Positions 3 to 28,500 of a stretch of 32,000 nucleotides of DNA are shown in pieces. The translations under genes were made by a program, and so were the position numbers. The notes under the pieces are model-generated. The model worked only from the letters and a program-made list of their open reading frames with translations. It was not told the DNA's origin and searched no databases. Location of the stretch: positions 1,290,001 through 1,322,000 of the forward strand of contig CP060262.1 in the NCBI GenBank assembly GCA_022646745.1. Reading direction: 5' to 3'. Within the stretch, counting starts at the first letter, position 1, and every line of letters begins with the position of its first letter. This DNA comes from Planctomycetales bacterium (GTDB taxonomy: Bacteria; 4484-113; JAFGCY01).

Positions 3-524
3 ACGCATGGCACCCTCAAGCGCCCCGGCGATGCCGACTGGAAGGAGGAGGAGCAGGTCGTCTTCAACTGGTTCGGTGACAAGTCCGACCCGATTGTGCT
101 GATCCAGTGCCGCGTTGACAGCTTCGAGGATGACCTCGAGCAGAGCGCCTACGACATCTTCTGCGACACCCTGCTTTCCAACTGGCTCAACTCAGATGAC
201 AACTACACCGTGCTTGATCCGCCGCTGCCGCGCAGTGAGGGAGAACCGCGCCGCACGCGCAGCATGCTCGGCTCGCATACCTGGAACCTGATCCAGATTG
301 ACGACCACTCCGATGCCAACGGCGGCAAGATCTACTACTCGATCTTCTGCACCTACAGCGGCAGGGACATCTACACCATCAGCTTCTACTACCTCAATCC
401 GATGACCAAGGAAGACACCCGCGTCAAGGATTTCGGCAAGCCGCTGCTGGAGAGCTTCCGCATCGCCGGTGAGGGCAGTGCCGTGGAGGAGGATGAGATG
501 GCGGCTGAGGACGGCGCTGCCTAG
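3..524 (+). CDS. hypothetical protein, N-terminus outside the window
   Basis: The frame is open from base 3 with no stop before the listed ORF at 96. It ends at TAG 522-524. There is no in-frame ATG near the left edge. No motif recognised. Confidence 0.55.
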   Translation, partial: THGTLKRPGDADWKEEEQVVFNWFGDKSDPIVLIQCRVDSFEDDLEQSAYDIFCDTLLSNWLNSDDNYTVLDPPLPRSEGEPRRTRSMLGSHTWNLIQIDDHSDANGGKIYYSIFCTYSGRDIYTISFYYLNPMTKEDTRVKDFGKPLLESFRIAGEGSAVEEDEMAAEDGAA

Positions 525-1153
525 CGCAGGATCGTTGCCAGCCTCATTTCAAAGTCCTCACGGGTCATCTCCGTCGTGACGTAGCCGACAACCTTGCCGT
601 CACGGTCAAGGAAGAAGGTGGATGGGAATGCGCTCAGGCCGAGCTTTTCCTTGACATCCACGCTGTGGTACATCGGGATCTCAAACCCCTTCTCCTTCCA
701 GAAGTCCTCGGCGGCCTTGCTGTCAACGGAGACCGCGATCATGTCGAACTCGGCCTTGCGCTCCTTGTAGACCTCATTCAGAGCGGGCAGTTCGTCCACG
801 CAGGGCGGGCACCAGTCACCCCAGAAGTTGACAACCAGCGGCCTGCCGTAGAAGGAGCTGATACCAAGCACCTCGCCGTCCGCACGGCGCACGCTGAATT
901 CCGGCATCGAACGCGCTGAGGAAGCACCGTCTGATTCCGATCCACCGCCGGGATTGGCCTGCTCGCCTGCTGCATTCTCTTTGGATGCGGCTGCATCCTG
1001 CTCGAGCTTGTTTTCTGTGACGTAAGCCTGGCCTTCCTGATCTTGAGCGAGGGTTTTTGCATTGCCGGCCTGTTCTTCGGCGGTCTTGTTGCAGGAAACG
1101 GCCAGCAGCAGTATCGCTGCCAGGGAAAGGATAATCAGCTGGATGGCTTTCAT
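521..1153 (-). CDS. TlpA/ResA-like thioredoxin-fold thiol:disulfide oxidoreductase lipoprotein, Cys form (WCPPC)
   Basis: Part of ORF 521..1234. Start moved to ATG 1151-1153, which gives the signal peptide and lipobox MKAIQLIILSLAAILLLAVSC-NK. Active site is NFWGDWCPPC and the cis-Pro loop is AFPSTFFL. Confidence 0.85.
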   Translation of the reverse strand: MKAIQLIILSLAAILLLAVSCNKTAEEQAGNAKTLAQDQEGQAYVTENKLEQDAAASKENAAGEQANPGGGSESDGASSARSMPEFSVRRADGEVLGISSFYGRPLVVNFWGDWCPPCVDELPALNEVYKERKAEFDMIAVSVDSKAAEDFWKEKGFEIPMYHSVDVKEKLGLSAFPSTFFLDRDGKVVGYVTTEMTREDFEMRLATILR

Positions 1154-1257: not shown

Positions 1258-1854
1258 TCAGCGCGTGATTTCCGCCAGCTTGGCTTCGAACTCCTCAGCA
1301 CTGATCTCCCCGAGGTGCTCATCCACCACTTCACCCTCGCGGTTGATGAAGAAGGTATGCGGGATGCCATGCACGCCGTACATGTCACCCCAGTCGCCAT
1401 CCAGTCCCCACGGGAAGGTGTAGCCGCTCTGCTGCATCCAGGGAACCGGTTCCTTCGCGCGGTGCGAGGCCAGGGCCAGCAGCTCGAACTCGCCGCTGTG
1501 CTGCTTGTACATCTGCTCAAACACGGGAAACTCCCGCTTGCAGGGCTCTCACCACTCGCCCCAGAAGTTCAGCACCAGTGGCGTCCCGATGAAACGGGAT
1601 GCCTCCATCGGGCTGCCATCCGGGCTCGTGTATTTCGCTGTCAGCAGCGGGCTGCTCTCTGCCACTTCCGGCACCACTGGGCTGTCGCCGGGCGAGTCCT
1701 TGATAGGCTGGCCTGCAGCAGCTGCATCGTCCGCATTGCCTTGGACCGTGGAATGAACGCCATCCGCTGAGCCGGAAGAGTCCTGTGGCTGTTTATTGCA
1801 GGAAGCCAGAAGCAGCAATGCGATGCAAGGCAGCAATAGCTGGATGCGAATCAT
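1258..1854 (-). CDS. TlpA/ResA-like thioredoxin-fold lipoprotein, predicted selenoprotein (W-U-E-P-C; in-frame TGA at 1549-1551)
   Basis: ORFs 1549..1863 and 1258..1524 are in the same frame and separated only by the TGA. The read-through gives [23 protein letters not shown], which is colinear with the neighbouring WCPPC paralog. The C-terminal part carries the cis-Pro loop GIPHTFFI. Lipobox is LLLASC-NK. Start set at ATG 1852-1854, which has AGGAG 11 nt upstream. GTG at 1863 is an alternative start. Confidence 0.8.
1524..1536 (-). promoter_or_regulatory. putative bacterial SECIS hairpin (mRNA CGGGA-GUU-UCCCG)
   Basis: A 5-bp stem with a GUU loop begins 12 nt 3' of the UGA at 1549-1551. The stem may extend with G-U pairs and bulges. 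Confidence 0.6.
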
Positions 1855-1884
1855 GTAATGCACTGCTCCTGTCGCGATCCGGGC

Positions 1885-2418
1885 TTACTTGATGAGCTTG
1901 GCCAGCTTAGCCTCAAACTCATCGTGTCCCATCATGCCGACCTGCTGGTCAACCAGGTTGCCCTCAGCATCGATGAAGAAGGTATGCGGAATGCCGCTCA
2001 CACCGAACTTCGTGCCGCCATTGACATCGTGCACCATCGGGAAGCTGTAGCCGTTCTGGCTCCAGAAGCCTTCCGCATCCTGCGATGTCGGCGCGGCTAC
2101 TGCCAGCAGCTCGAACTGACCCTGGTGCGCTTCGTAACTTTTCTGGAAATCAGGTAACTCCTGAACGCAGTACCCTCACCAGTCGGCCCAGAAGTTCACG
2201 ACAAGTGGCTTGCCGAGGTACTGGGCCGTGGTCTGGGTCTGTCCACCCGTGGTCTTGAAGCTGAAATCCGTGGCCGGGTTGGGTTGCAGGGCATTGCCCC
2301 CGCTGCTGACCGTGCCACCACCACCGGAACCAGCCTGGTTGGTCTTGTTGCAGGAGAAGCCCAGCCCGGTCACCAGGACCAGGGCCAGCAGCAACATCCT
2401 TGCAGTGATCTGTTGCAT
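1885..2418 (-). CDS. TlpA/ResA-like thioredoxin-fold lipoprotein, predicted selenoprotein (W-U-G-Y-C; in-frame TGA at 2176-2178)
   Basis: ORF 2176..2418 ends in VVNFWADW followed by TGA. The same frame continues GYCVQELPDFQKSYEAHQGQFELLAVA...GIPHTFFIDAEGNLV...AKLIK to TAA at 1885-1887. Total length is 534 nt, which is in frame. Lipobox is LGFSC-NK. Confidence 0.8.
2150..2164 (-). promoter_or_regulatory. putative bacterial SECIS hairpin (mRNA UCAGG-AGUUA-CCUGA)
   Basis: A 5-bp stem with an AGUUA loop begins 11 nt 3' of the UGA at 2176-2178. Confidence 0.6.
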
Positions 2419-2556: not shown

Positions 2557-2562
2557 TTTTCC

Positions 2563-3156
2563 GTGAGTGATTCACCAAAACGCGGGGCGCGCGAGAAGCT
2601 GATAGCTGCGGCGACGGAGTTGATCCGGCGTAACGGCTACAGCGCGACCAGCGTGGACAGCATCGTGGAAGCGGCCGGGGTCAGCAAGGGCAGCTTCTTC
2701 TACCACTTCGAGGGCAAGGAGGCACTGACCACCGCCTGCCTCGAGAACTGGGACCGGATGACCACCGGCATGCTGGCGGACGCGCCATTCATGCAGCTGG
2801 AGGACCCAGTGCAGCGCCTGCAGGGCTGCCTGGAATTCTTCATCATGGTGTTCTCCGATGCCCGCCAGTATCCCTCCTGCCTGGTCGGTACCACGGTGCA
2901 GGAGGTGGCGGACAGCAGCCCGACGCTGCGGGAGGCGGCCCGTACCTGCTTTTCGCATGCAGCCGGGCAGATCGGGGGACTGATCGCCGGGGCCGCGCAG
3001 GCGCGTGGCAGGGAACTGGACAGCATGGGCCTCGCGAACCTGTGGATGGCCACCCTGCAGGGTTCGCTCCTGATGGCCAAGGCCAGCGGGGATCCGGCCC
3101 GGATCCCGGCAAACCTGCGCAGCCAGCGGGACTACATCCTCGGGCTGCTTGGATAG
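2563..3156 (+). CDS. TetR/AcrR family transcriptional regulator
   Basis: N-terminal HTH region REKLIAAATELIRRNGYSATSVDSIVEAAGVSKGSFFYHFEGKEAL. Length is about 197 aa counted from GTG 2563. The longer ORF starting at 2284 overlaps the divergent gene and is rejected. Confidence 0.85.
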   Translation: MSDSPKRGAREKLIAAATELIRRNGYSATSVDSIVEAAGVSKGSFFYHFEGKEALTTACLENWDRMTTGMLADAPFMQLEDPVQRLQGCLEFFIMVFSDARQYPSCLVGTTVQEVADSSPTLREAARTCFSHAAGQIGGLIAGAAQARGRELDSMGLANLWMATLQGSLLMAKASGDPARIPANLRSQRDYILGLLG

Positions 3157-3269
3157 GCAGCAGGGAGCAGAAAGCAGGGAGCAGACTCCCTTGTTCGATA
3201 CATCAAGTCTGCCTGCTGCTTTCAGCCAGCTGCTCACTGATTAATCTGACAACACTTCGGGAGAACAGG

Positions 3270-3788
3270 ATGACGATAGCGGAAGCGATTCTGATGGAGA
3301 TCGAACAGGAGGCCATTGCCACGCGCAAGTGCCTCGAGCGCATCCCGGCCGACAGGCTGGACTGGAAGCCGGCGGAGAAGTCGATGAGCGCCGGCGAGCT
3401 GGGCATGCACATTGCCACTTCCCCGAGCGGGATCCTGTGGATGATGATGCAGGACGAAACCGGCTTCCCCGACCCGCCGGCCGAGAAGCCGGCGATCACG
3501 CATGCCGGCATCATGCAGGCCTTCGAGGACAGCCTTGCCAGGCAGCGTGAGACCTTCCCTGGCCTGACTGACGAGTTCATGACGGCGGAGTGGAAGTTCC
3601 TCAAGGATGGCAAGGTGCTGATGGCCCTGCCGCGTGTGGCCTTCGCTCGCATGGTGCTGCTCAGCCACATCTACCACCACCGTGGCCAGCTCAGCGTCTA
3701 CCTGCGCCAGCTGGATGTACCGGTGCCGAGCATCTACGGACCGAGCGCGGATGAGCTGCCGCCCTTCATGCAGGAAGCCGCAGGGTAG
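3270..3788 (+). CDS. DinB-family (DinB_2-like) four-helix-bundle protein
   Basis: Starts at ATG 3270 with GGGAGA upstream. Sequence MTIAEAILMEIEQEAIATRKCLERIP...LLSHIYHHRGQLSVYLRQL carries the typical DinB His motif. Confidence 0.75.
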   Translation: MTIAEAILMEIEQEAIATRKCLERIPADRLDWKPAEKSMSAGELGMHIATSPSGILWMMMQDETGFPDPPAEKPAITHAGIMQAFEDSLARQRETFPGLTDEFMTAEWKFLKDGKVLMALPRVAFARMVLLSHIYHHRGQLSVYLRQLDVPVPSIYGPSADELPPFMQEAAG

Positions 3789-3821: not shown

Positions 3822-3999
3822 GTAGCGGTGGCGCCTTGCGCCAATTGAGAGAGACTGCCGAATCATTCAGATTCAGACATTCCCGGCAGGTGGTGCTTGT
3901 CATTGCATGCGCGATGAACCAATCAGGGATCGCTTATATGAAGACGGTCACAGAACTACGGGAGATGCCCTTTCAATTGGCGCGAGGCGCCACCGCTAC
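3822..3999. repeat. 26-bp inverted repeat enclosing 126 nt
   Basis: Left arm 3822-3847 (gtagcggtggcgccttgcgccaattg) matches right arm 3974-3999 (caattggcgcgaggcgccaccgctac) at 25 of 26 positions. Confidence 0.8.
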
Positions 4000-4016: not shown

Positions 4017-4247
4017 TTGCGCGATGCATCTTCATGGGCAGCGATGCAACTTCAGCGCGACCCGGGTGCGCGGATGCGCAGCCGCAGCGCCAGACCGAAT
4101 TCTCTTACCCGCTCATGCAAGCATTCGCGGGTCTGCAAACCGGAGCGAAGCAAGCTTCACTCCTCTTGCCCGATGCATCTTCATGGGCAGCGATGCAACT
4201 TCAGCGCGACCCGGATGCGCGGATGCGCAGCCGCAGCGCCAGACCGA
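4017..4247 (+). repeat. two copies of an 82-bp direct repeat, period 149 bp
   Basis: Copy 1 is 4017-4098 and copy 2 is 4166-4247. They differ at 2 positions. The ORFs listed here (3836..4336, 3907..4317) merely translate the repeat. Confidence 0.85.
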
Positions 4248-4315: not shown

Positions 4316-4426
4316 AAAATCCGCTCTTCTTTTTGAGCACTGCGTTGTACAGAGATGATACAGGTTCTGACCATCCGTGTGGTTTGGCCTGCGTAAAATG
4401 ACAACCAATACAAAGTAAAAAATTAA

Positions 4427-4629
4427 GTGGTCAGTGGTCAGTGGTCAGTGGGAGTGGGCAGTGGGAGGTCAGGCCCATGGCCTGACAGGTATACGGTCCC
4501 ATGGACCGCATGAGTGCGCAGAAGGCAGAAGGCAGTGGGTAGAAGCAGAATGAGAAACAGAAGCAGAAGCAGCCGCCGGTTCATTGCTATGGATTCAGCC
4601 TGACCACTGACTACTGACTACTCACCACT
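4427..4629. repeat. tandem 9-mer (gtggtcagt x3) with an inverted degenerate partner array, enclosing two CCCATGG-centred hairpins and (gcagaag)n
   Basis: Left array starts at 4427 and extends to about 4465. The inverted partner array is at about 4599-4629 (cctgaccactgactactgactactcaccac). Hairpin 1 is at 4468-4486 and hairpin 2 at 4494-4508. Confidence 0.7.
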
Positions 4630-5008: not shown

Positions 5009-6490
5009 TCAGCCTGTCGCCAGGTCGGCGTCATCGTCCACCGGCCGGGCATTGCTGGATTCACTGCGCAGGAACAATCCGGTCAGCAGCCAGGGGATGC
5101 CGGCGGAGAGCAGCAGTGCGCCCATGATCATGTAGCCATCCATGCTGTAGCGGAAGGTGAGGATCTGCTCGAAGCCCGGGAAGGGCCCGAATGCAAAGGC
5201 CTGGGTGCTCAGCTCCAGCAGGTTCTGGTACTTCTGCGTAAGCACGAATGGCACGACGGAGCAGTAAAGCGCCAGGCAGGTCAGCAGCGCATACAGCACG
5301 GCGGGCAGGGGACCGCGCCGTCCCATGATGAACAGCATCGCGAACAGGCCGAGGATGCCCATGATCGGCACCGGAGCTGCGATCCAGGCGATCCCGCTGC
5401 CGGGATGCATCAGCGGGGCAGTGGCGAACAATGGCCCATAGGTTATCTCCTCGCCGATTATGACCCTTGGTTTTCCTCCAAGCGGGTAGGGACCGTATCC
5501 GTAGCTGTGCATGCTCAGGTTCCGGCGCGCGTTCAGGAATGGGCCAGGAGATTTATAGGTCCAGTGGGCGACGACAGGATTTTCAAGGGACCAGCCAGGC
5601 GGCAGTTTCCCGTTGGTTCGCACGTGGCTTGCCATCTTCTTTTCGATCAACTCCAGATCAGTAACCGCCCCGAGATAGATGCTCTCGCTGTCCTCGCGTA
5701 CGTCCTGCACCGGATAGGGTTGAGTGACGTCCACCCGGCGCATGGCAGAAGGTCCGGTCGTCCACAGGAATACAAGCACCAGTGACAGCATGGCAGGAAT
5801 GCCAGCCCTGCGCCAGCGCGGCATAAGGAATCCGGCGATGATCCCGGCAAGCATCACTCCACCAAGCATCACGGTTATCCAGGCAAAAACGCCATCCAGC
5901 CGGCCGGACACACTGCTGTAGCCATATTCAGTCAGCAGCGGCTCCAGCAGTATCAGTCCTCCGAACAGGATCAGGGTGTGGATCAGTTTGTACTGCAGCA
6001 GCCTGGCAATCAACACACCCAGGCCGAGCCGCCAGGCATCCAGCACGCCACGGGCCAGTACGTAGAAGAACATGCCCCGGCTGATTGCCAGCAGCAGCCA
6101 GCAGCTGATTGCCAGCGGGCTGAACTGGTTTGGCAATACCCCGGGATTGTACATTGTCCGGCTGTACTCCCGGGAAATCCCCTGCAGGTAACCGGACAGG
6201 GCATCGCCAAGCAGGGCCAGTGCGAACCAGAACATCAACCAGCCCAGTTCGCGCCATTCCTCGCGGTTTGGCTTGCGGTGCAGGGTGGCAACCACCTGGT
6301 CGGCGATATGCGCCGCCGACAGTTTGCGCCGCACTTTAGGTTCCGCCAGTTTCGCCTCGGCGGCCCTGGCTGCATCGCTGCCCTCGTCAGCCTGCAGGCA
6401 GTCCAGGTGGTCCGACAGTTCGCTGGCAATCTCCGAGTGCCGCTGGGGTGACAGCCCCCAGTCATCAGGATGTCCGAAGCGTGTATCCAT
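5009..6490 (-). CDS. multi-pass membrane protein with a PadR-associated N-terminal helical domain (paralog B)
   Basis: 493 aa. The first 51 residues are identical to the upstream paralog, followed by many hydrophobic segments. The ATG lies 9 nt after the stop of the preceding gene. Confidence 0.75.
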   Translation of the reverse strand: MDTRFGHPDDWGLSPQRHSEIASELSDHLDCLQADEGSDAARAAEAKLAEPKVRRKLSAAHIADQVVATLHRKPNREEWRELGWLMFWFALALLGDALSGYLQGISREYSRTMYNPGVLPNQFSPLAISCWLLLAISRGMFFYVLARGVLDAWRLGLGVLIARLLQYKLIHTLILFGGLILLEPLLTEYGYSSVSGRLDGVFAWITVMLGGVMLAGIIAGFLMPRWRRAGIPAMLSLVLVFLWTTGPSAMRRVDVTQPYPVQDVREDSESIYLGAVTDLELIEKKMASHVRTNGKLPPGWSLENPVVAHWTYKSPGPFLNARRNLSMHSYGYGPYPLGGKPRVIIGEEITYGPLFATAPLMHPGSGIAWIAAPVPIMGILGLFAMLFIMGRRGPLPAVLYALLTCLALYCSVVPFVLTQKYQNLLELSTQAFAFGPFPGFEQILTFRYSMDGYMIMGALLLSAGIPWLLTGLFLRSESSNARPVDDDADLATG

Positions 6491-6499
6491 GTCCGTCCC

Positions 6500-7954
6500 C
6501 TATGTGGTCTCCACCAGATTTGCATCTGAATCACTCTTGCCCGCATCGACCATGAAGGCTGACATCAGCATGAACAATGACAATGGCACAAGCATGAAAA
6601 CGATGATCGCGTAATTATTGTCGGAATAGCTCCCGGTGTTCAATGCGACGGTTAACTGCGGGAATGGATGGATCAGAACTGAGCTGACTGCATACTGAAA
6701 AGGGGTGCCGAATTCCGTCCAACTCGTGTTGCCGCTCCAAGGTGAAAAGGGAGCATCCGGAAACCGCAGGAAAATTACCAGGCAGGTTATCAGCGAAAAT
6801 GCTGCCCCGGTTGGTGCAAGCATCTTGTGCAAACCAGCCTTGACTGATCTGGAAGCATCTTTCGTGCCATGCAGTATCACGCTTGCAAATGTAAGCAGCA
6901 GCATGATGATCGTTGTCAGGACAGTGAAGTTACCGGTCACATCAATATATGGCTCGGTCAGCCAGGTCTTCCTGATTTCCATATCCGGACGCAGGTGGGC
7001 CTTGTCAATGCCAAAGGATTCCCGCTTTTTTGAATACGCATTGATGAGACTATGCCCAACCTGAACATCCGAAGCGATGCCATCGAGGATAGCCCAGCCC
7101 TCTTCAAGGTTGACCCGCTGGGGGTCCATCCCATTGTCAAGAATCTCCTGCAGCACCTTCTGGCTCAGCTTGGACTTGCTCTGGAAATGAACAACAGCTC
7201 CAGGCCCCGTGAAGTAAGCAGCCAGCGCAAACATTGCCAGTCCGGAGGATACCAACCAGAGGCGCGACCTATTCATCAAGAGAAGAAGTATTGCAACGAT
7301 GCCTGCCGAAATGGCAAAAAACTCGGATGTCAGTGGAAGCTGATGTGCAAGGTTTGTCCTCAGCTGACTCGTGTTCTCAGCTGTCAGGAAATTGCGGAAC
7401 ATCACTGCCTGCACAATGGAAATCCAGAGGGAAAGCTGGATGGCTCTGGCTGCCATAACTCCGATGCCAATCCTGCTGGATCTCTTAAGTATGGCAACCA
7501 GCTGGCAAATGACGCCGATTCTGCCCGCCTGGCACAAAAGCCATGCAAGGAGAATTGCCGCGAACACAATTGGACTGGACTCTTCAGAGGAGAAGTACCT
7601 GCCGAATCTTTCTCCTGGAATATACGGAAACAAAGCTGCGGTTCTTTCGAGATACTGCCATGCCGCTGTGCCTCCTGCCAGCAGCACGATCCAGAAGCCC
7701 AGCCACATCCATTCGCGCAATTCAGCTGGAGTAGGCCAGCGCAGCAGTGTCGTTGTCAGCTGGTCGGCCACATGGGCGGAAGAGATCTTCTTTCGTACCT
7801 GCGGTTCCGCCAGCTTCGCCTCGGCGGCTCTGGCAGCGTCGCTGCCCTCATCCGCCTGCAGGCAGTCCAGGTGGTCTGACAGTTCGCTGGCAATCTCGGA
7901 ATGCCGCTGCGGCGACAGCCCCCAGTCATCAGGATGTCCGAAGCGTGTATCCAC
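6500..7954 (-). CDS. multi-pass membrane protein with a PadR-associated N-terminal helical domain (paralog A)
   Basis: 484 aa. GTG start lies 3 nt after the padR stop. N-terminus reads MDTRFGHPDDWGLSPQRHSEIASELSDHLDCLQADEGSDAARAAEAKLAEP. Confidence 0.75.
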   Translation of the reverse strand: MDTRFGHPDDWGLSPQRHSEIASELSDHLDCLQADEGSDAARAAEAKLAEPQVRKKISSAHVADQLTTTLLRWPTPAELREWMWLGFWIVLLAGGTAAWQYLERTAALFPYIPGERFGRYFSSEESSPIVFAAILLAWLLCQAGRIGVICQLVAILKRSSRIGIGVMAARAIQLSLWISIVQAVMFRNFLTAENTSQLRTNLAHQLPLTSEFFAISAGIVAILLLLMNRSRLWLVSSGLAMFALAAYFTGPGAVVHFQSKSKLSQKVLQEILDNGMDPQRVNLEEGWAILDGIASDVQVGHSLINAYSKKRESFGIDKAHLRPDMEIRKTWLTEPYIDVTGNFTVLTTIIMLLLTFASVILHGTKDASRSVKAGLHKMLAPTGAAFSLITCLVIFLRFPDAPFSPWSGNTSWTEFGTPFQYAVSSVLIHPFPQLTVALNTGSYSDNNYAIIVFMLVPLSLFMLMSAFMVDAGKSDSDANLVETT

Positions 7955-10374: not shown

Positions 10375-11808
10375 GTGGGCGCAAAGCTTAGCCAGGAACA
10401 GCAACTGGAGGAACTCACGGCGCAGGAAGCCAAACTGCGCGCTTCCGGCAGTCCGCCGGATCCAGAGAAGCGCATGATGCGCGCTGGCATCCTGGTCAGG
10501 CTCGGCCGCTACGATGAGGCACACAACGCGCTCGATTCGGCCGCTGCCGCCTGTACGGAGCTGGGCATCCCTGAGCTGGCCCGCATCATGAACATCCGCG
10601 CTGATGTGCTGCGCCTGCAGGGGCTGTACTCGGAAGCCCTGGCAAGCATCCAGGCTGCGGAACAGCGCTCGCTGGCAGATGAGCACTTCTTCCCCGGTAT
10701 CTACAACACCTGGGCGAACATCCTTGCTGACCTGGGCCGTCCCGGACAGGCCCTGAAGCTGATCCAGCGCGCCGGGGACTATTTTGCGGGCGAGGGCATT
10801 GCCTTCCCGCCACCGTTGGCCACGAATCGTGGCAACATGCTCAAGTCCCTGGGCCGCTACCATGAAGCGCTTGAGGCATATGACCATGCCCGCCGCCTGT
10901 ACGAGGAACAGGACAAGCCTGTGTTCCCAGGCATCTATTCCATGATCGGCCTGACCCTGATCCTGCAGGAGAAGTACGCAGAGGCCCTGTTGCCGCTGGA
11001 TGAATCGGAACGCTTCTGCCATGAGCAGGGCTGGGCACCGTGGTTCGGCATCGACATGTACCGTGGTGTGTGTTTCGGCAAGCTGAAGCGGTACGGGGAT
11101 GCCATGGCGGCTTATTCCCGTGCCCAGGCGATCCTTGATGAACAGCGGGTGATCGGGGAGTGGGAACTTAATTTCAGCCGGGCAATCACGATGTACGAGG
11201 CCGGACATGCAAGCGAGGCCATAGCGGAGGTTTACGAGGCCATCGCCCTCTGCGCCAAACTGGGCGTGGACCAGCCGGCGTTCATGATGGAGACCCTGCA
11301 GGACTGGTTGTCACCGCAGCCGGAGAAGCTGGCAGCGCAGCAGCAGGCCAGCCAGCCCGCTCCAATAGAGCCGGTGCCCGACAGCGAGAAGCGCTACGAT
11401 GCATTCCTGAGCTACCGCCGCGATCCCGGCCTGCCCTATTCAATGCTGATCAAGACGCACCTGGACATGAATGGGCGCAGCATCTTCCGCGACCAGGAGG
11501 ACCTGCATAAGGGCCAGTTCCACGAGGACATCATCGATGCCATCCGCCACAGCCGGCACATGATCGTGCTGATGACGCCGGGTTTCTTCGAGCGCTGCAG
11601 CAATCCCGAAGACGTGCTTCGCAATGAGATCTCCACCGCGCTGCGCTGCGGCACGCACATCATCCCGCTGATGATGGAGGGGTTCAGCTGGCCGCAGCCA
11701 GCTGATTTGCCGGCGGATATCCGCGACATCTGCAAGGTGAATGCGATGTCCTATTCCAGCGAGTTCTTCAGCGCCTTCATTGACAAACTGCTGCGCTGGA
11801 TGGGCTGA
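10375..11808 (+). CDS. TPR-repeat protein with a C-terminal TIR domain
   Basis: About 300 aa of TPR-like repeats (e.g. LGRYDEAHNALDSA, LGRYHEALEAYDHA, LKRYGDAMAAYSRA), then a Q/P-rich linker. The TIR region reads YDAFLSYRRDPG...HMIVLMTPGFFERCSNPEDVLRNEISTAL. The GTG start at 10375 is uncertain. Confidence 0.8.
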   Translation: MGAKLSQEQQLEELTAQEAKLRASGSPPDPEKRMMRAGILVRLGRYDEAHNALDSAAAACTELGIPELARIMNIRADVLRLQGLYSEALASIQAAEQRSLADEHFFPGIYNTWANILADLGRPGQALKLIQRAGDYFAGEGIAFPPPLATNRGNMLKSLGRYHEALEAYDHARRLYEEQDKPVFPGIYSMIGLTLILQEKYAEALLPLDESERFCHEQGWAPWFGIDMYRGVCFGKLKRYGDAMAAYSRAQAILDEQRVIGEWELNFSRAITMYEAGHASEAIAEVYEAIALCAKLGVDQPAFMMETLQDWLSPQPEKLAAQQQASQPAPIEPVPDSEKRYDAFLSYRRDPGLPYSMLIKTHLDMNGRSIFRDQEDLHKGQFHEDIIDAIRHSRHMIVLMTPGFFERCSNPEDVLRNEISTALRCGTHIIPLMMEGFSWPQPADLPADIRDICKVNAMSYSSEFFSAFIDKLLRWMG

Positions 11809-18381: not shown

Positions 18382-18942
18382 ATGCGCAGACAGTTGATCG
18401 GAAGCTTCCTGCTGCTGGTGACGGTCCTGCTCGTGTTCTCCGCCTGCAACAAGCAGCAGGGCGAGAACGCGGACAGCGGCAATGGCCAGCAGGTGGCGGA
18501 AGCACCCGCTCCCGTGCGGGAAACCACCGGTGGCAATGTACCGAGCGGCCAGCCGGATCTTACCTATGCCACCTTTGCCGGCGGCAGCGGCAAGGTCAGC
18601 GCCCTGGCCGGCAAGCCCGCCGTGGTAAACATGTGGGCAGTCTGGTGAACTTCCTGTATTCAGGAGATTCCTGAATTCCTCGAATTGCGTGAAGAAACCG
18701 GCGACAAGTTCAACTGGCTGTTCGTGGCAACGGATGACATCGGTGACCCGAAGCAGCTTGTCACTGACAAGGGCTGGCCAGCCGAGGTGTTTGCGATGAG
18801 CGAGGGGGGCGACATCAAGGACTTCCACGACGGCGCTAACCCGACCACCTACTTCTATGATTCCAGTGGGAAGCAGGTTGACAAGATGGTTGGCTCATTG
18901 ACCCTCGCAGAACTGAGGGAGAAGGTCGCTGGCCTGAACTAG
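18382..18942 (+). CDS. TlpA/ResA-like thioredoxin-fold lipoprotein, predicted selenoprotein (W-U-T-S-C; in-frame TGA at 18646-18648)
   Basis: ORF 18373..18648 ends in VVNMWAVW followed by TGA. The same frame continues TSCIQEIPEFLELREETGDKF...NPTTYFYDSSGKQV to TAG at 18940-18942, and ORF 18685..18942 is in that frame. Lipobox is VFSAC-NK. ATG 18382 has GAGG 8 nt upstream. Confidence 0.8.
18658..18676 (+). promoter_or_regulatory. putative bacterial SECIS hairpin (AUUCAGG-AGAUU-CCUGAAU)
   Basis: A perfect 7-bp stem with a 5-nt loop begins 9 nt after the UGA. Confidence 0.65.
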
Positions 18943-22706: not shown

Positions 22707-22775
22707 GGACCGGCGCTTGCGCTGCCAGCGGGAAGCAGCATAGAATGGGTGATCAAGCTGATTCTGGAGTAATCC

Positions 22776-25616
22776 ATGCAGACCACTGGATTCCCCGTTC
22801 TGATTGTCGTCGCAGCCTGTCTATGGCTTAGTGCCTGTTCAGGCACGGAACTGGCTACCCCTGAAGCCACGCAGGACCTCAGTGTCGCGCAGGTCACTGT
22901 TCCCGCCACACTGCCGCAGGACGCCCTGCAGCCCTGGGAACAGGACCGGCAGCCCACCGCACTGGACGCTGCGTCTGAATTCACCGCCGGTGCCGACAGG
23001 TTCATGGAGGGCGGCACTGTCTCGGATCTCGGGCTGGCCAGCCGCATCGGTGACAACAGCGGCAGTGGCGACGGGATCAGCTATGCGCTGTACCGTATTC
23101 CGCTGGCGGGTTTCCAGCCCGGGGCGCTGGCCTTCGACGTCAACATCCAGCCGGATGGATCCGCTGCCCAAAGCGAATACTACATTGGCCTGAGCAACTA
23201 TGCAGCCGGTCGCTGGGAATGGCACGGGCCGTACTCTGAGCACCACGTGCGGCTGGTGCGCAGTGATGGCCCTGGTCCGGATGTCTTCAACGACGATGAC
23301 TACACATCAGGGTTTGACAACCTGTTCGTGAACATCCTCGTGCAGGGAGACAGCCAGGTGGACGTGGTCGGGATCAGCAGTGACAGCCTGAGTGGGGCTG
23401 ATTCCGAAGCGCCTCCGGTACCGACCGGCCTGCAGGCCAGCCCGGTGGCCGGTGGCCTGCTGCTCAGCTGGGAGACGGTTGCCGCAGCGGACCTGGCCGG
23501 CTACCGGATTCACTTTGCAGATCATTCATTCATCTCGCCGGACAGTGCAGGTGTCAGGCATGCCGGCTATGTCGAAGGCAGCACGAGCCAGCTGTTGGAG
23601 AGCCTCAACGGATTGACCTACGTGCGCATAACGGCAGTTGACAACAATGGAAACGAGAGCGCCCCGTCGGCGGAAGCCTCGGCGCTGCCCCTTGCGGGAA
23701 ACGCCCCGCAGGTGCTGGCCAGTGTGAGCAAGCCGTCAGTGCAGCGTGGTGAGCCGATGGACCTGCTCGTTGTCGGTGATACGACGGGCCTGCTGTTCGA
23801 TTATGACCTGGATGGCGATGGCCTGTTTGAGCTGGCTGGCCAGTCTGCCGCAACGCAGGCGTTGCCGACCCAGGACAGCGGCCTGCTGCGCCCCCGGGTG
23901 ATGTCAATTGACTCCCAGGGCGAGCGCACTGCACTCGGAGGGGTCAGCCTGATCGTCAGCTCCAACAGCCGCCCGGTGGCCAGTGCGGGAGTATCGGCCC
24001 AGAGCGGCCCGGCACCGCTGTCAGTGGACTTTGACGGCACCGAGAGCACGGACTTCGACGGCAGCATCGTGGGCGGCGGCTGGGACTTCGACGGTGACGG
24101 CATCTACGACGCCTTTGACGAGGAAAGCACAGCCCAGCTGACCGCCAACCACAGCTATGCCGCTCCGGGCTTCTACAATGCCCGCCTGCGTGTGATTGAC
24201 GACGAGGGAGCATGGGATGTGGACACAGTCGGCATCTTCGTTGAGGGAAGCGGCACTGGACAGGACTTCCCGCCGCTGGCCATGCTCACAAGCAGCGACT
24301 CCAGGGTCTACATGGGTGGGCTTGACCAGACCTATGAAGTGACGCTTGATGCCTCGGGCAGCACTGACCCTGAGGGCGGTGCACTTGAATATGCATTTGA
24401 TCCGGAGGGAGATGGCGAGTTCACTGCATTTGGCAGCCAGTCCAGCATTGGCCACGAGTTCGACGGAAACGGCGTGCATCAGGTCAGCGTCCAGGTGCGA
24501 GATGAAGCGGGCCAGGTCTCATCCGCCAGCCTGCTGGTCAGTGTCTACAGGGTGGATTCGCTGCTGCTGGATACGCAGTACGACCTGTCAAACCGTACGG
24601 CGATCGTGGGCCTCAAGGACAACGGCTCGCGCAGGATCGGCATCCTCTACAACGATTCCGTCAATGATGACCTGAGGTTCACCTACAGCGCGGACAGCTT
24701 CGGGGACAGCTGGATGCCATCAAAGATCCTTGACAGCAACGGAATGGAGTGGGCAAGCTTCATCCAGGACATCTCCCAGTTCGCATTCTTCTACTACCGA
24801 GACGGCGACCTGTTCTACAAGCACAGCAGCAATGATGGCACGAGCTTCGGCACCGGTACCGTTGATGATTCAGCGGATGACGCCGGCAACTACTGCTCGG
24901 GGATCTACTACAACGACGCCCGGGGCAATGGCCCGGCCGTGGCCTACTACAACGCTGATGACGGTGACCTGTACTTCAACAAGGCGGCCAGCGGAGGCGG
25001 CACCGGCGTCGGCAGCTGGGACCCGCCTGTGGCGGTGGACGGCACGGGGGACACCGGGCTCTTCTGCTCGCTGCAGTTGGTTGCCAACCGGCCGGCGATT
25101 GCCTACTACAGGGCGGACAACGGCAACCTGCTGTATACGCGCGCAGACGACAAGGAAGGCACCACCTGGTCAGCACCGGTGGTGGTTGACGGCACAGCAG
25201 ATGACATCGGACAGCATGCCAGCCTGGCCCTGATCAGGGACGAGGCTGGCAACGTCTTCCCCGCGATTGCCTGCCACAATGCGACCACGAACAGGATCGA
25301 GTACCGCCGGGCCCTGGATGTCAACGGTGACAGCTGGGGTGATGTGGTCGAAATCAGCCTGACACCGGACATCACCGCGCTGCAATTGATGCAGGTCGGT
25401 GACCGCGTGATGGTCTGTGCCAGCCGCGACGATTTCTACGGTGCATGGTTCATGGTATCCGCGGATGCCGCTGGCTCGGACTGGGTGATTCACGTCATCA
25501 ACCCCTCCGGCTCCCCGGACCTGTTGTCAGCCAGCATCACGCAGGAGGGACACCCGGTGTTCGCCTACTGGCACGTGTTTGAGGGCCTGCGGGTGGCCAG
25601 GCCGAAGCTGGACTGA
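22776..25616 (+). CDS. 946-aa surface lipoprotein: N-domain, FN3-like, two PKD-like domains, C-terminal propeller-like repeats (paralog 1)
   Basis: Lipobox WLSAC. The FN3-like region reads APPVPTGLQASP...AGYRIHF...VRITAVDNNGNES. The PKD-like region reads PLSVDFDGTESTDFDGSIVGGGWDFDGDG...YNARLRVIDDEGAWD. A repeated motif of the form YY.ADDGDLYF / YYRADNGNLLY occurs in the C-terminal part. Confidence 0.8.
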   Translation: MQTTGFPVLIVVAACLWLSACSGTELATPEATQDLSVAQVTVPATLPQDALQPWEQDRQPTALDAASEFTAGADRFMEGGTVSDLGLASRIGDNSGSGDGISYALYRIPLAGFQPGALAFDVNIQPDGSAAQSEYYIGLSNYAAGRWEWHGPYSEHHVRLVRSDGPGPDVFNDDDYTSGFDNLFVNILVQGDSQVDVVGISSDSLSGADSEAPPVPTGLQASPVAGGLLLSWETVAAADLAGYRIHFADHSFISPDSAGVRHAGYVEGSTSQLLESLNGLTYVRITAVDNNGNESAPSAEASALPLAGNAPQVLASVSKPSVQRGEPMDLLVVGDTTGLLFDYDLDGDGLFELAGQSAATQALPTQDSGLLRPRVMSIDSQGERTALGGVSLIVSSNSRPVASAGVSAQSGPAPLSVDFDGTESTDFDGSIVGGGWDFDGDGIYDAFDEESTAQLTANHSYAAPGFYNARLRVIDDEGAWDVDTVGIFVEGSGTGQDFPPLAMLTSSDSRVYMGGLDQTYEVTLDASGSTDPEGGALEYAFDPEGDGEFTAFGSQSSIGHEFDGNGVHQVSVQVRDEAGQVSSASLLVSVYRVDSLLLDTQYDLSNRTAIVGLKDNGSRRIGILYNDSVNDDLRFTYSADSFGDSWMPSKILDSNGMEWASFIQDISQFAFFYYRDGDLFYKHSSNDGTSFGTGTVDDSADDAGNYCSGIYYNDARGNGPAVAYYNADDGDLYFNKAASGGGTGVGSWDPPVAVDGTGDTGLFCSLQLVANRPAIAYYRADNGNLLYTRADDKEGTTWSAPVVVDGTADDIGQHASLALIRDEAGNVFPAIACHNATTNRIEYRRALDVNGDSWGDVVEISLTPDITALQLMQVGDRVMVCASRDDFYGAWFMVSADAAGSDWVIHVINPSGSPDLLSASITQEGHPVFAYWHVFEGLRVARPKLD

Positions 25617-25683
25617 GCCTGACAGCGGCCTGGATTTTGCCTGACGGTAGAATGGAGCATTGAATCCCCTCCCGGAGGAACAG

Positions 25684-28500
25684 ATGCGACCCATCATGCA
25701 CCCGGTGAGCGCTTGCGCCATCCTTACTGTTATCCTGCTTGCTTCATGCGGCTCCGACAGGACTGCCCGGTTGCCCGAATCAAGCCAGCCCGTCGGCCAG
25801 TTGCAGCCAGCGATGGAATTCCCCAGCGGATTGCCTGCCGACGGACTGCAGCCCTGGGAGGAAACCCGGGCTGGCAGTGCACTTGATGCCCAGTCCGAAT
25901 TCACAGCCGGCACGCAGCGCTTCCTGGAGGGGGGCTCCGTGCTGGATGCCGGAGCCGCCAGCCGGATCGGTGACAGCAGTGGTGCTGGCGATGGCATGAG
26001 CTTTGCGCTCTACCGCCTGCCGATGGCGGGACAGCAGCCTGGTGCGCTGGCATTCGATGTCAATATCCTGCCGGATGGCGACTTCGGGCCGAGCAGCTAC
26101 TACATCGGCCTGAGCAACTATGCCGCGGGCCGCTGGGAATGGCATGGACCATACAGCGAGCACCATGTGCGCCTGGTGCGCAGCAGCCAGCCCGGCCCAG
26201 ATGTGTTCGCCTCCGAGGACTACACTTCTGAGTTTGACAACCTATTCGTCAACGTGCTCGTGCATGGCTCAAGCCAGGTGGATGTGCTCGGCATCAGCAG
26301 TGACAGCCTGAGCGGCGCTGATGCTGAAGCGCCTCCCGTGCCGCAGGGACTTGCCGCCACCGGCATCAACGGTGGAGTTGCACTGACTTGGAATCCGGTG
26401 CTGGCGGCGGACCTGGCGGGATACCGTGTGAATTTTTCAAAACAAGCCTTCAGTGCCCCTGATGAAGCGGGAGTGCAGCATGCCGGATTCGTGGAGGGCA
26501 ACACGCGGCACCTGCTGGCCGGACTGAGCGGAGAAGTGCACGTGCGGATCAGTGCCGTCGACAACAACGGCAATGAAAGCACGCTGTCCGATGAGGTCAC
26601 AGCCACAGCTCTGTCAGGGGATGCCCCGCTGATCCGGCTGGAGGTCAGCAACAACAGCGTGCCGCGCAATGCAGTGGCAACGGTGGAGGTTGTCGGCGGA
26701 GATGAAAACCTGCTGTACGACTACGACCTTGATGGCGATGGGATCTACGAACTGACCGGTGAAACGGATACGCTCAAGGCCCTGCCGACGCAGGAAACCG
26801 GGCTGATCCGTCCGGCGGTGCGTGCCAGCGACCTGGATGGTGAACGTATTGCGCTAGGTGGAGTCAGCCTGCTAATTTCATCCAACAGCCGTCCGGTGGC
26901 GGACGCACTGGCCTCAGTGCAGTTCGGCACTGCCCCGCTCAGTGTGGATTTTGACGGCAGCGGCAGCACAGACTTTGACGGCACGGTCGTCGGTGGGGGC
27001 TGGGACTTCGACGGCGACGGGGTCTATGACTCCTATGATGAGGGTTCAACTGCCAACCTCAGTGCAAGCCACCAGTACAACACGCCGGGATTCTACAACG
27101 CCCGGCTGAAGGTGCTTGACGACGAGGGGGCCTGGGATGTGGATACGATAGGCATCTTCGTGGACGGCGGCGAGACCCAGAACCGGCCCCCGGTGGCAAA
27201 CCTGGTGTTCAGCCCGGATTTCATCATTTCCGGCCTATATGTCAGCCCGATTGACATGCAGTTTGACGCCAGCTCAAGCTTCGACCCCGACTTTGACACG
27301 CTTGAGTACGCCTGGGATGTGAATGGTGATGGAAGCTATGCATCCTATCAATCACTGTCCACTGCCAGCATCTCCAGCTTCACCCAGGGATTGCAGAGCG
27401 CGGGCGTGCGGGTGCGCGACGAGGCCGGCAACATCAGCCAGGCCACAGTGGTCTATGCCGTCTACCAGTTCAATTCACAGCTGGTGGACAGTGGTAGAAC
27501 CGTTGGCAATGCAACATCGATCGTGTCCGTGGACAGCATCCTCGGCAGTACCAGGACCGGCATTGCGTACTACGACTCGAGCAATGATGACCTGATGTTC
27601 ACGTACTGCACGGACCAGAACGGCTACAGCTGGCAGCCCGCTTACGTTGTGGAGGCACTCGGCGGCGAATGGATGAGCCTCGTGCCCAACGCCAGCGACT
27701 TCCAGATGGGCTATTACCGGGATGGCAACCTGTACTACAGGGAGAGCGATGACGAGGGCAAGAGCTTCGAAGCGCCGATCGACGTGGACACGGGCGCAGA
27801 CGATGCCGGGATGTACGTGGATGCGGTGCGACTCACCAACAAACCCGCCTTTGCCTACTACAATGCCACCGACGGGGACCTTTACTATGCAGTTTCCAAC
27901 AGTGTCAATGTCAGCAACTTCGGCACCCCGGTCAATGTGGACGGAACCGGTGATACAGGGCTCTATCCCGATGTGGTGTACAGCGGCGGGAACCACAGCA
28001 TTGCCTATTACAGGCAGGACAATGGCAACCTGATGTTCGTGCAGTCAACGGATACCTCAGGCCTGAACTGGGGATCGCCTGTGATGGTTGATGGCAACGA
28101 CGGTGATGTCGGCAGACATCCATCGATGCTGAGCATCAGTTTCAAGTTCTGCATAGCCTACCTGGATTCACTCAATGATGTCTGGTTCGTGAAGTCAAGC
28201 GATTCCTCCGGTAGTGCCTGGGGCACGCCACTCCATCTCGGCAATGTCAACGCAAAAACCTGCGAGATGATGGTTGTGGGAGACCGGCTGGCGATCTTCA
28301 TCGGGGATGATGTCCTCGGGCGCGGCGAGTTCATCCTGTCGGAAGACATTAGCGGCGACAGCTGGGGAAGCTGGGAGTATTACGACTACGGCGATACGAC
28401 CGGCTTCATGTCGGCAGCACCGATGTTCAACGGCATGCCGGGACTGGCATACTGGGATGAGGACCAGGAGCTGTACTTCACGACCCCGCGGCTGGACTGA
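25684..28500 (+). CDS. surface lipoprotein, tandem paralog 2 of the preceding gene
   Basis: Same domain order as paralog 1. ATG 25684 lies 5 nt after GGAGGA. The listed ORF, from TTG 25660, is also exactly 946 aa. Lipobox is LLASC. Confidence 0.8.
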   Translation: MRPIMHPVSACAILTVILLASCGSDRTARLPESSQPVGQLQPAMEFPSGLPADGLQPWEETRAGSALDAQSEFTAGTQRFLEGGSVLDAGAASRIGDSSGAGDGMSFALYRLPMAGQQPGALAFDVNILPDGDFGPSSYYIGLSNYAAGRWEWHGPYSEHHVRLVRSSQPGPDVFASEDYTSEFDNLFVNVLVHGSSQVDVLGISSDSLSGADAEAPPVPQGLAATGINGGVALTWNPVLAADLAGYRVNFSKQAFSAPDEAGVQHAGFVEGNTRHLLAGLSGEVHVRISAVDNNGNESTLSDEVTATALSGDAPLIRLEVSNNSVPRNAVATVEVVGGDENLLYDYDLDGDGIYELTGETDTLKALPTQETGLIRPAVRASDLDGERIALGGVSLLISSNSRPVADALASVQFGTAPLSVDFDGSGSTDFDGTVVGGGWDFDGDGVYDSYDEGSTANLSASHQYNTPGFYNARLKVLDDEGAWDVDTIGIFVDGGETQNRPPVANLVFSPDFIISGLYVSPIDMQFDASSSFDPDFDTLEYAWDVNGDGSYASYQSLSTASISSFTQGLQSAGVRVRDEAGNISQATVVYAVYQFNSQLVDSGRTVGNATSIVSVDSILGSTRTGIAYYDSSNDDLMFTYCTDQNGYSWQPAYVVEALGGEWMSLVPNASDFQMGYYRDGNLYYRESDDEGKSFEAPIDVDTGADDAGMYVDAVRLTNKPAFAYYNATDGDLYYAVSNSVNVSNFGTPVNVDGTGDTGLYPDVVYSGGNHSIAYYRQDNGNLMFVQSTDTSGLNWGSPVMVDGNDGDVGRHPSMLSISFKFCIAYLDSLNDVWFVKSSDSSGSAWGTPLHLGNVNAKTCEMMVVGDRLAIFIGDDVLGRGEFILSEDISGDSWGSWEYYDYGDTTGFMSAAPMFNGMPGLAYWDEDQELYFTTPRLD

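Follow-up and report, generated by a model that had tools for sequence, protein, structure and literature searches.

In a stretch of 32,000 nucleotides (nt) from Planctomycetales bacterium (GenBank assembly GCA_022646745.1, contig CP060262.1, positions 1,290,001 to 1,322,000 of the forward strand), which we refer to as the window, we analysed a thioredoxin-fold gene, gene B, that is interrupted by an in-frame UGA codon. Very probably, gene B as a whole encodes one exported and lipid-anchored thiol-disulphide oxidoreductase, of ResA/TlpA/DsbE type, in which selenocysteine (Sec) replaces cysteine as the N-terminal nucleophile of the CxxC motif. The gene is continuous, its UGA is real and conserved, purifying selection acts on the part downstream of the UGA, and a conserved, covarying hairpin occurs in Sec forms only. 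Altogether the window contains three TGA-interrupted TlpA-like genes, A, B and D, which together with a paralogue in the Cys form, gene C, lie within 18 kb (Table 1). These genes belong to a known type of predicted selenoprotein and involve no new mechanism.

Table 1. Features of the TlpA-like genes in the window and of their surroundings. Quoted hairpin energies count canonical pairs only.
Feature	Position	Strand	Description
Gene C	521..1153	minus	Cys form NFWGDW-C-PPC-VDELP; last of the A-B-C tandem; no in-frame TGA
Gene B	1258..1854	minus	Predicted ResA/TlpA-like lipoprotein precursor, 198 residues, UEPC active site, read through UGA; from frame, Pfam and ResA alignment
Gene B stem-loop	1513..1543	minus	6-bp upper stem (1537..1523), GUU loop 1531..1529, -11.2 kcal/mol
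Gene B hairpin, covariance model	1518-1542		Rank 1; 23.4 bits, E = 8e-5
In-frame UGA, gene B	1549..1551	minus	Predicted Sec codon in place of first CxxC Cys
Gene A	1885..2418	minus	Sec paralogue, 177 residues, NFWADW-U-GYC-VQELP
Gene A hairpin	2143..2170	minus	5-bp upper stem, AGUUA loop 16 nt past UGA, -6.7 kcal/mol
Gene A hairpin, covariance model	2145-2169		Rank 6; 12.6 bits, E = 0.15
In-frame UGA, gene A	2176..2178	minus
Promoter-like site	2528-2556
TetR-family regulator	2560-3156	plus	Divergent from the TlpA cluster
DinB-family protein	3267-3788	plus
Gene D	18382..18942	plus	Sec paralogue, predicted lipoprotein, 186 residues, MWAVW-U-TSC-IQEIP
In-frame UGA, gene D	18646..18648	plus
Gene D hairpin, covariance model	18655-18679		Rank 2; 13.1 bits, E = 0.11
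Gene D hairpin	18658..18676	plus	7-8 bp stem, GAU (or AGAUU) loop, -7.9 to -8.4 kcal/mol

Gene B is continuous across an in-frame UGA

A preliminary description of this DNA, made from the sequence alone, had joined two open reading frames (ORFs), 1549..1863 and 1258..1524, into one gene. The two pieces do share a frame, with 291 nt or 97 codons from 1258 to 1548, and the coordinates proved correct. Translated in one piece from 1863 to 1258, the gene contains a single internal stop, which falls exactly on the catalytic codon; the frame then stays open for 96 codons and ends in a TGA terminator at 1258-1260. The read-through translation contains GIPHTFFINREGEVV, and the sequence flanking the internal stop runs into GVHGIPHTFFINREGEVVDEHLGEISAEEFEAKLAEITR. 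When Cys was put at the stop position, the Pfam match to AhpC-TSA/Redoxin extended without interruption over the UGA (residues 77-177; 53 and 48.5 bits, cut-offs ~26). In GenBank the pieces of gene B are two separate 'hypothetical protein' entries, UNM09448 and UNM09449, which is the split by annotators that had been anticipated; UNM09450 is a further hypothetical-protein deposit among the pieces. Mis-annotation as split fragments is typical of selenoproteins (2026 review, PMC13188914).

The alignments place the UGA at the first Cys of the CxxC motif, as had been proposed. The W-U-EPC region of gene B matches the NFWGDW-C-PPC-VDELP of the neighbouring gene C residue for residue, and the UGA also lines up with the first CxxC Cys in 11 Cys forms of the clade. 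The closest solved structure is that of ResA (4nmu, E = 8e-18), and this alignment, too, spans the UGA: FWGTW-C-KPC-EKEMP of ResA pairs with the U-E-P-C region, so that W-U-EPC faces W-C-KPC. The cis-Pro loop had been located in the downstream part, where GIPHTFF indeed aligns with PLPTSFL of ResA. With the UEPC site, this loop and the C-terminal helix EFEAKLA, the fold landmarks of gene B are whole.

The ORF boundaries needed one correction. The frame is as described before, but the start is likely the ATG at 1854 (MIRIQLLL..., with AGGAG 11 nt upstream), not the GTG at 1863; gene callers likewise placed the start at 1854. Read by eye, the N-terminus resembles a lipoprotein signal peptide with the lipobox LLLLASC/NK.

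The UGA codons are real and the genetic code is standard

Six contigs that were assembled independently, from different samples and read sets, agree 100% over the 2.2-kb region comprising genes A, B and C. A contig from a second strain (L014, ~98.7% identical) has the TGA codons of both gene A and gene B, and the latter is kept in spite of 13 substitutions elsewhere in the gene. The UGA of gene D is present in L002, a contig of the same second strain, and in the related locus L139. TGA is the terminator of eight of the 19 confident genes in the window, gene B among them, which shows that UGA is a normal stop codon here and that the genetic code is standard. The preliminary description had named a different codon at 1549-1551 in the raw reads as one result that would speak against it; the identity of the six assemblies and the persistence of TGA in the second strain point the other way. 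With these three lines of evidence, a sequencing or assembly error at the TGA, or a code that reads UGA as sense, is extremely improbable; nothing was found in favour of either.

Genes A and D are interrupted at the same codon

Only gene B had been recognised as a selenoprotein gene before; that assignment stands, but the count was too low, genes A and D having been overlooked. Gene A, the immediate upstream neighbour of gene B, reads PLVVNFWADW-U-GYCVQELPDFQK around its UGA. Gene D was detected by a systematic scan for TGA-interrupted frames and reads PAVVNMWAVW-U-TSCIQEIPEFLELR; gene callers cut it into pieces of ~88 and ~85 residues. As in gene B, the only internal stop of genes A and D is on the first codon of the CxxC motif. 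On inspection of the sequences, the N-termini of all four paralogues consist of a hydrophobic signal sequence followed by a lipobox-like [AFV][SA]C-NK.

Purifying selection extends past the UGA

Related loci were reached through the Cys paralogue, gene C, whose orthologues in L140, L141, L142, L143, L144 and L145 are 49-63% identical to it; L122 came from a metagenome scan, and L139 was added for gene D. A-type genes with the UGA retained occur in seven other assemblies and in strain KDL29. In the related genome L143, adjoining Sec and Cys paralogues are ~61% identical.

We compared the ratio of nonsynonymous to synonymous substitution rates (dN/dS) on the two sides of the UGA. For gene A against six orthologues at dS of at least 1, dN/dS past the UGA is 0.15-0.24, the same as before it. 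Codon alignments gave 0.39 after and 0.385 before the UGA for gene D against L139, and 0.34-0.61 past the UGA for gene B against A-type genes. From purifying selection past the UGA that equals the selection before it, we conclude that the downstream part is translated.

This bears on the simplest alternative, namely that an ordinary TlpA gene was disabled when a nonsense mutation turned TGC into TGA, which would make the ORFs remnants of pseudogenes. Such a mutation needs only one C-to-A change, and GenBank and all gene callers keep the pieces apart as hypothetical ORFs. Against it stand the three paralogues in the window and the orthologues in seven other assemblies, whose sole internal stop is at this very codon, the equal selection on both sides of the stop, and a hairpin specific to the Sec forms (see below). 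The chance that the genes are such remnants seems to us close to nil.

A hairpin downstream of the UGA distinguishes Sec from Cys forms

In bacteria, a selenocysteine insertion sequence (SECIS) is expected to have a loop of 3-9 nt with G at the first or the second place, an upper stem of at least 4 bp, a spacing of 16-37 nt from the UGA and a folding energy of -7.5 kcal/mol or lower (PMC13188914 Fig. 2). The stem-loop of gene B lies within all these limits, with a GUU loop, 6 bp, a spacing of 17 nt and -11.2 kcal/mol, as does that of gene D (GAU loop, 8 bp, -8.4 kcal/mol). The core of the gene B hairpin, CGGGA-GUU-UCCCG at 1536..1524, had been reported correctly, and the energy given here is for its extended form. 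Twelve nucleotides separate the UGA from the first strong (C-G) pair, at C16, and a weaker G15-U29 pair can lengthen the stem by 1 nt. The GUU loop lies 17 nt past the UGA, and the G and U of the loop are 17-19 nt after it. Counted from the U of the UGA, the hairpins of genes A, B and D are at equal offset: their upper stems fall within nt 13-31 and their loops at nt 20-24. The gene A hairpin is weaker than those of its orthologues.

The comparison with the fdhF element of Escherichia coli that had been drawn for gene B is apt in part. In both cases the coding sequence forms a stem-loop just 3' of the UGA that presents G then U in a small apical loop, and the UGA-to-loop distance of 16-17 nt seen here is within the consensus bacterial SECIS model (PMC13188914 Fig. 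2). The present hairpins are far shorter, however, with upper stems of 5-8 bp, and their loop is fixed inside an E-L/F/I-P protein motif.

This protein motif is common to Sec and Cys forms, but the hairpin is not: within the clade, it is present in all ten Sec forms and absent from all eleven Cys forms. The 5-bp core (nt 15-19/25-29) has energies of -5.6 to -7.9 kcal/mol in the former and +1.3 to +6.9 kcal/mol in the latter. After the TGC codon of gene C no stable hairpin forms (+2.9 kcal/mol for the 5-bp core, -0.2 for a 7-bp version). The L/F/I codon of the motif, which follows GAG, is UUA, UUG, UUU or AUU in Sec forms and CUG in every Cys form. Among the Leu codons of the window UUA accounts for 0.4% and CUG for 66%, and we attribute the rare codons of the Sec forms to a constraint at the RNA level. 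A compensatory change is seen between gene A, with U15-A29, and its orthologue in L122, with C15-G29.

Folding energy alone says little about these hairpins. Some of the complementarity already comes from the Q-E-[LFI]-P-x-F motif of the protein. At gathering scores, Rfam has no match in the whole window, and at E of up to 10 the region 1200-2500 gave no SECIS family, only chance matches.

The hairpin covaries in a wider metagenomic family

A metagenome scan with the pattern TTY TGG GSN GAN TGG TGA N6 TGY (F-W-[GA]-[DE]-W-TGA-xx-TGY) returned at least 120 stretches. Among the matches listed, 114 of 125 are intact UxxC TlpA/Trx-like ORFs that run on for ~75-130 codons past the UGA. More than 110 intact genes from a single DNA pattern indicate that the type is far commoner than the handful in early surveys. 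The hairpin is shared by 43 distinct E-L/F/I-P sequences among the matches listed, mostly with an AGUUG loop at nt 20-24.

In an alignment of 45 hairpin sequences, 87.6% of the cells are paired. Five of the seven pairs have changed on both sides (27 cells), the observed covariation score was reached by none of 500 shuffles, and slid registers all score far lower. G19, C25 and C26 are fixed through the protein motif by which the sequences were picked, which leaves 13-17 with 27-31 as the informative pairs.

We then built a covariance model from 42 external sequences, excluding those of the window and the clade orthologue L122, and ran it unfiltered on both strands of the window (64 kb). The gene B hairpin is the best match in the window, and those of genes D and A rank second and sixth (Table 1). 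The gene C site is unlisted (E above 10); as gene C has the same C-x-x-E-L-P context, this serves as a control for similarity in coding sequence. A covariance search and conservation of the hairpin in UGA-bearing orthologues had both been put forward as checks of the preliminary description, and both came out in favour of gene B as a predicted selenoprotein gene, as did the conserved UGA and the selection past it.

Other arrangements were seen in the same scan. In each of L124, L073 and L089, between two and four UxxC TlpA-like genes stand in tandem. They belong to a 'LDFWGDW-U-GPC-RAMYPHERSLV' subfamily, to which about half of the 114 intact ORFs among the matches listed can be assigned. In this subfamily the predicted loop is near the AUGUA of the M-Y codons, a SECIS solution unlike the AGUUG type. 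In five loci of the E-L-P group (L020, L049, L099, L104 and L136) the first hairpin is without a GUU loop, GAACU or GAGCU replacing GAGUU, and a second hairpin, (C)GAUGC-AGUU-GCAUC(G), is found at nt 33-47 after the UGA, ~13 nt further 3'. The SECIS loop motif thus appears to have been relocated in these loci.

Evidence against Sec decoding and against a working gene B

Several observations weigh against the conclusion that gene B is a working selenoprotein gene. Neither a sel gene nor a tRNA-Sec was found in the window, which covers 32 kb of a closed 4.11-Mb genome, or in related loci that total ~130 kb. ARAGORN detected no tRNA, either in the window or across ten related loci. An Rfam match to tRNA-Sec at 2302-2392 (minus strand) reaches 17.1 bits where the gathering score is 47 (E = 3.1), lies inside the part of gene A that encodes the signal peptide and linker, and coincides with no ARAGORN tRNA; we regard it as due to chance. 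The hairpin of gene A misses the published energy limit, though no other, at -6.7 against -7.5 kcal/mol. When synonymous codons were resampled, with forced and possibly non-canonical terminal pairs allowed, the native hairpin energy was reached in 15 of 1000 resamples for gene B, 113 of 1000 for gene A and 402 of 1000 for gene D; gene B alone stands out. Gene B is also the least constrained of the three Sec genes. It has no orthologue outside its own species, the related genomes carrying only A-type and C-type genes, and it sits on a long branch, being 40-50% identical to A-type genes.

The lack of Sec machinery in the sequence covered could be taken to mean that the UGA is read by a route other than SelB and Sec, for example by a near-cognate or suppressor tRNA that inserts Trp or Cys. 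UGA is the leakiest stop codon. Leakiness would not need a hairpin, however, and the hairpin with its G/U apical loop, canonical spacing and compensatory changes is found in the UGA forms only. We know of no other hairpin-dependent UGA recoding in bacteria. Moreover, the UGA is exactly at the position of the redox Cys, as in the UxxC selenoprotein families (PMC1794560, PMC13188914). Read-through by such a tRNA is therefore very unlikely.

The remaining points concern gene B itself, which might be a decaying, non-functional duplicate that still resembles a selenoprotein gene, with genes A and D in working order. In addition to the long branch and the lack of orthologues, the differences between the two strains are seven nonsynonymous and six synonymous in gene B, of which three and four, respectively, fall after the UGA; gene A has seven differences, every one of them synonymous and past the UGA. 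A word-indexed protein search with gene B gave five matches, none above 33% identity, in a result from which gene B's own fragments were also missing. A scan of a genome collection returned a single match, to an unrelated Microbacterium TlpA (29% identity), which indicates that gene B has no close relative among GTDB representatives. On the other hand, the frame of gene B is open to its end with every fold landmark intact, and its hairpin is the strongest and best-scoring of the three Sec genes. Four of the seven nonsynonymous changes fall in the signal peptide or low-complexity linker, and dN/dS against A-type genes past the UGA stays below 1. We consider decay of gene B unlikely, and a functional selenoprotein remains our preferred interpretation of this gene.

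Relation to known protein families

UxxC selenoproteins of the thiol:disulphide oxidoreductase type have been described since 2004-2006. An analysis of 25 selenoprotein families of bacteria in 2006 included a 'Thiol:disulfide interchange protein' and a 'Prx-like thiol:disulfide oxidoreductase' of UxxC type (Zhang et al., PMC1794560 Table 1), and in a 2026 review the two families are still 'predicted with high confidence' (PMC13188914). Like these families (PF13098, PF00578), the genes described here combine a thioredoxin fold with a UGA at the first Cys of CxxC and a SECIS hairpin directly 3' of it, have Cys-form homologues in the same organisms, and are computationally predicted. The likeness to the published representatives WP_011366075.1 and WP_010940744.1 is one of family description and Pfam assignment. 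Those representatives are from Deltaproteobacteria; the present genes are from an unclassified lineage of activated-sludge type. Unlike the published cases, three Sec paralogues and one Cys paralogue occur here within a single short region, all four with predicted lipoprotein signal peptides.

Matches to PF00578 score 53 bits for gene B, 74 for gene A and 65 for gene C, those to PF08534 48-73 bits (cut-off ~26), and those to PF13098 33-42 bits. Among the Cys-type extracytoplasmic thiol-disulphide oxidoreductases, ResA of Bacillus subtilis and B. anthracis (1st9, 4nmu) and TlpA/CcmG/DsbE, the closest structural relative by sequence is ResA 4nmu, whose signature the active site of gene B closely resembles. 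ResA-type proteins and gene B share the cis-Pro loop, and gene B would also have their membrane- or lipid-anchored extracytoplasmic topology; the nucleophile is Cys in the former and would be Sec in the latter.

More specific assignments were rejected. NCBIfam scores are far under the cut-offs for a ResA, TlpA or DsbE equivalog (76.8 bits against 170 for ResA NF002854), and gene D reaches 32-43 bits with the TlpA, StoA and ResA models, below threshold. ResA proper, which acts in cytochrome c maturation, was discarded on the score below the NF002854 cut-off and on the gene context, which is without ccdA and resBC. NF041054, the 'ResA-like WAxxUGC motif-containing protein', is also a ResA/TlpA-like selenoprotein family, but of UGC type; its cut-off is 300 bits, of which genes A, B and D reach 21-40, and their motif is W-U-x-x-C, not UGC.

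Gene neighbourhood and other features of the window

The TlpA cluster is surrounded by the TetR and DinB genes, a gene for a 227-residue protein and an ornithine carbamoyltransferase gene. The TetR-DinB neighbours are conserved in L140, L143, L144 and L145. Cytochrome c maturation genes (ccdA, resBC, ccm) are absent from the neighbourhood of the cluster. A functional tie of TetR and DinB to the TlpA cluster, which would make it a stress-regulated envelope redox module, is speculation. In L142 (505-5227) and L122 (1254-1994), the end of a Mu-like prophage (portal, terminase, HTH/S24 repressor) takes the place of TetR-DinB upstream of the Sec-TlpA gene, from which we conclude that the TlpA cluster borders an integration site.

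Further along the window, an 82-nt non-coding direct repeat (4017-4098 and 4166-4247; 98% identical, 149 nt from start to start) is flanked by inverted repeats of 30 nt (3822-3851 / 3970-3999) and 23 nt (4426-4448 / 4600-4622), with an array of the heptamer AGTGGTC beside it at 4426-4464. The alignment of contig L008 breaks exactly at 4098/4166, which suggests that the copy number of the 82-nt repeat varies between strains.

Two tandem paralogous genes on the minus strand (5009-6490 and 6500-7954) encode multi-pass membrane proteins of 493 and 484 residues with no Pfam match. Their first ~50 residues are near-identical (MDTRFGHPDDWGLSPQRHSEIASELSDHLDCLQADEGSDAARAAEAKLAEP) and the remainder is divergent; L014, from the second strain, has a PadR-family regulator ahead of them. 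On the plus strand, 10375-11808 encodes a protein of 477 residues that begins with TPR repeats, has a TIR_2 domain (PF13676) in its C-terminal part and may act in signalling or defence. Two tandem paralogous lipoproteins of 946 residues, with PKD domains and faint BNR-like repeats, are encoded at 22776-25616 and 25660-28500 (plus strand). The second strain appears to have only one copy in this interval, window positions 22707-25640 being without a counterpart in L002.

Discussion

If gene B is decoded as known bacterial selenoprotein genes are, the stem-loop 3' of its UGA would recruit the SelB-GTP-Sec-tRNA(Sec) complex, and Sec would be inserted with no termination. Judging from the family and the N-terminal sequence, export of the protein would then be via the Sec translocon, with acylation of the lipobox Cys. 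In the cell envelope, its selenolate would be expected to attack substrate disulphides, the second Cys would resolve the resulting selenenylsulphide, and the oxidised U-C pair might be re-reduced by a membrane electron shuttle of the CcdA/DsbD type. Genes A and D would work in the same way as gene B, with gene C as the Cys counterpart.

A broader proposal, which we put forward tentatively and regard as on balance doubtful, is that these genes form a lineage-specific envelope redox module of an uncultured wastewater lineage, in which up to three lipid-anchored ResA/TlpA-like selenoproteins stand beside Cys paralogues and TetR-DinB. Gene B would in that case be a species-specific duplicate of a Sec-decoding gene with its in-frame SECIS. 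The AGUU-loop hairpin in E-L-P also occurs in a metagenomic group of high GC content that is otherwise very different (VFWAEW-U-xxC-RRELPV). It would follow that either the Sec form of this TlpA subfamily is ancient or gene and SECIS have spread together horizontally, and that protein motif and RNA signal constrain one another.

In a closed public genome and in several related metagenome assemblies, the three Sec genes and their orthologues are split over at least six 'hypothetical protein' entries. Once joined, they correct the proteome and would mark the organism as one that uses selenium. At the nucleotide level, neighbouring Sec and Cys forms differ systematically only in the SECIS hairpin and the rare codon in E-L-P, which makes such pairs useful for the study of Cys/Sec interconversion and of a minimal bacterial SECIS. 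To the selenoproteome of an unclassified environmental lineage, the genes add what are very probably exported, lipid-anchored UxxC oxidoreductases.

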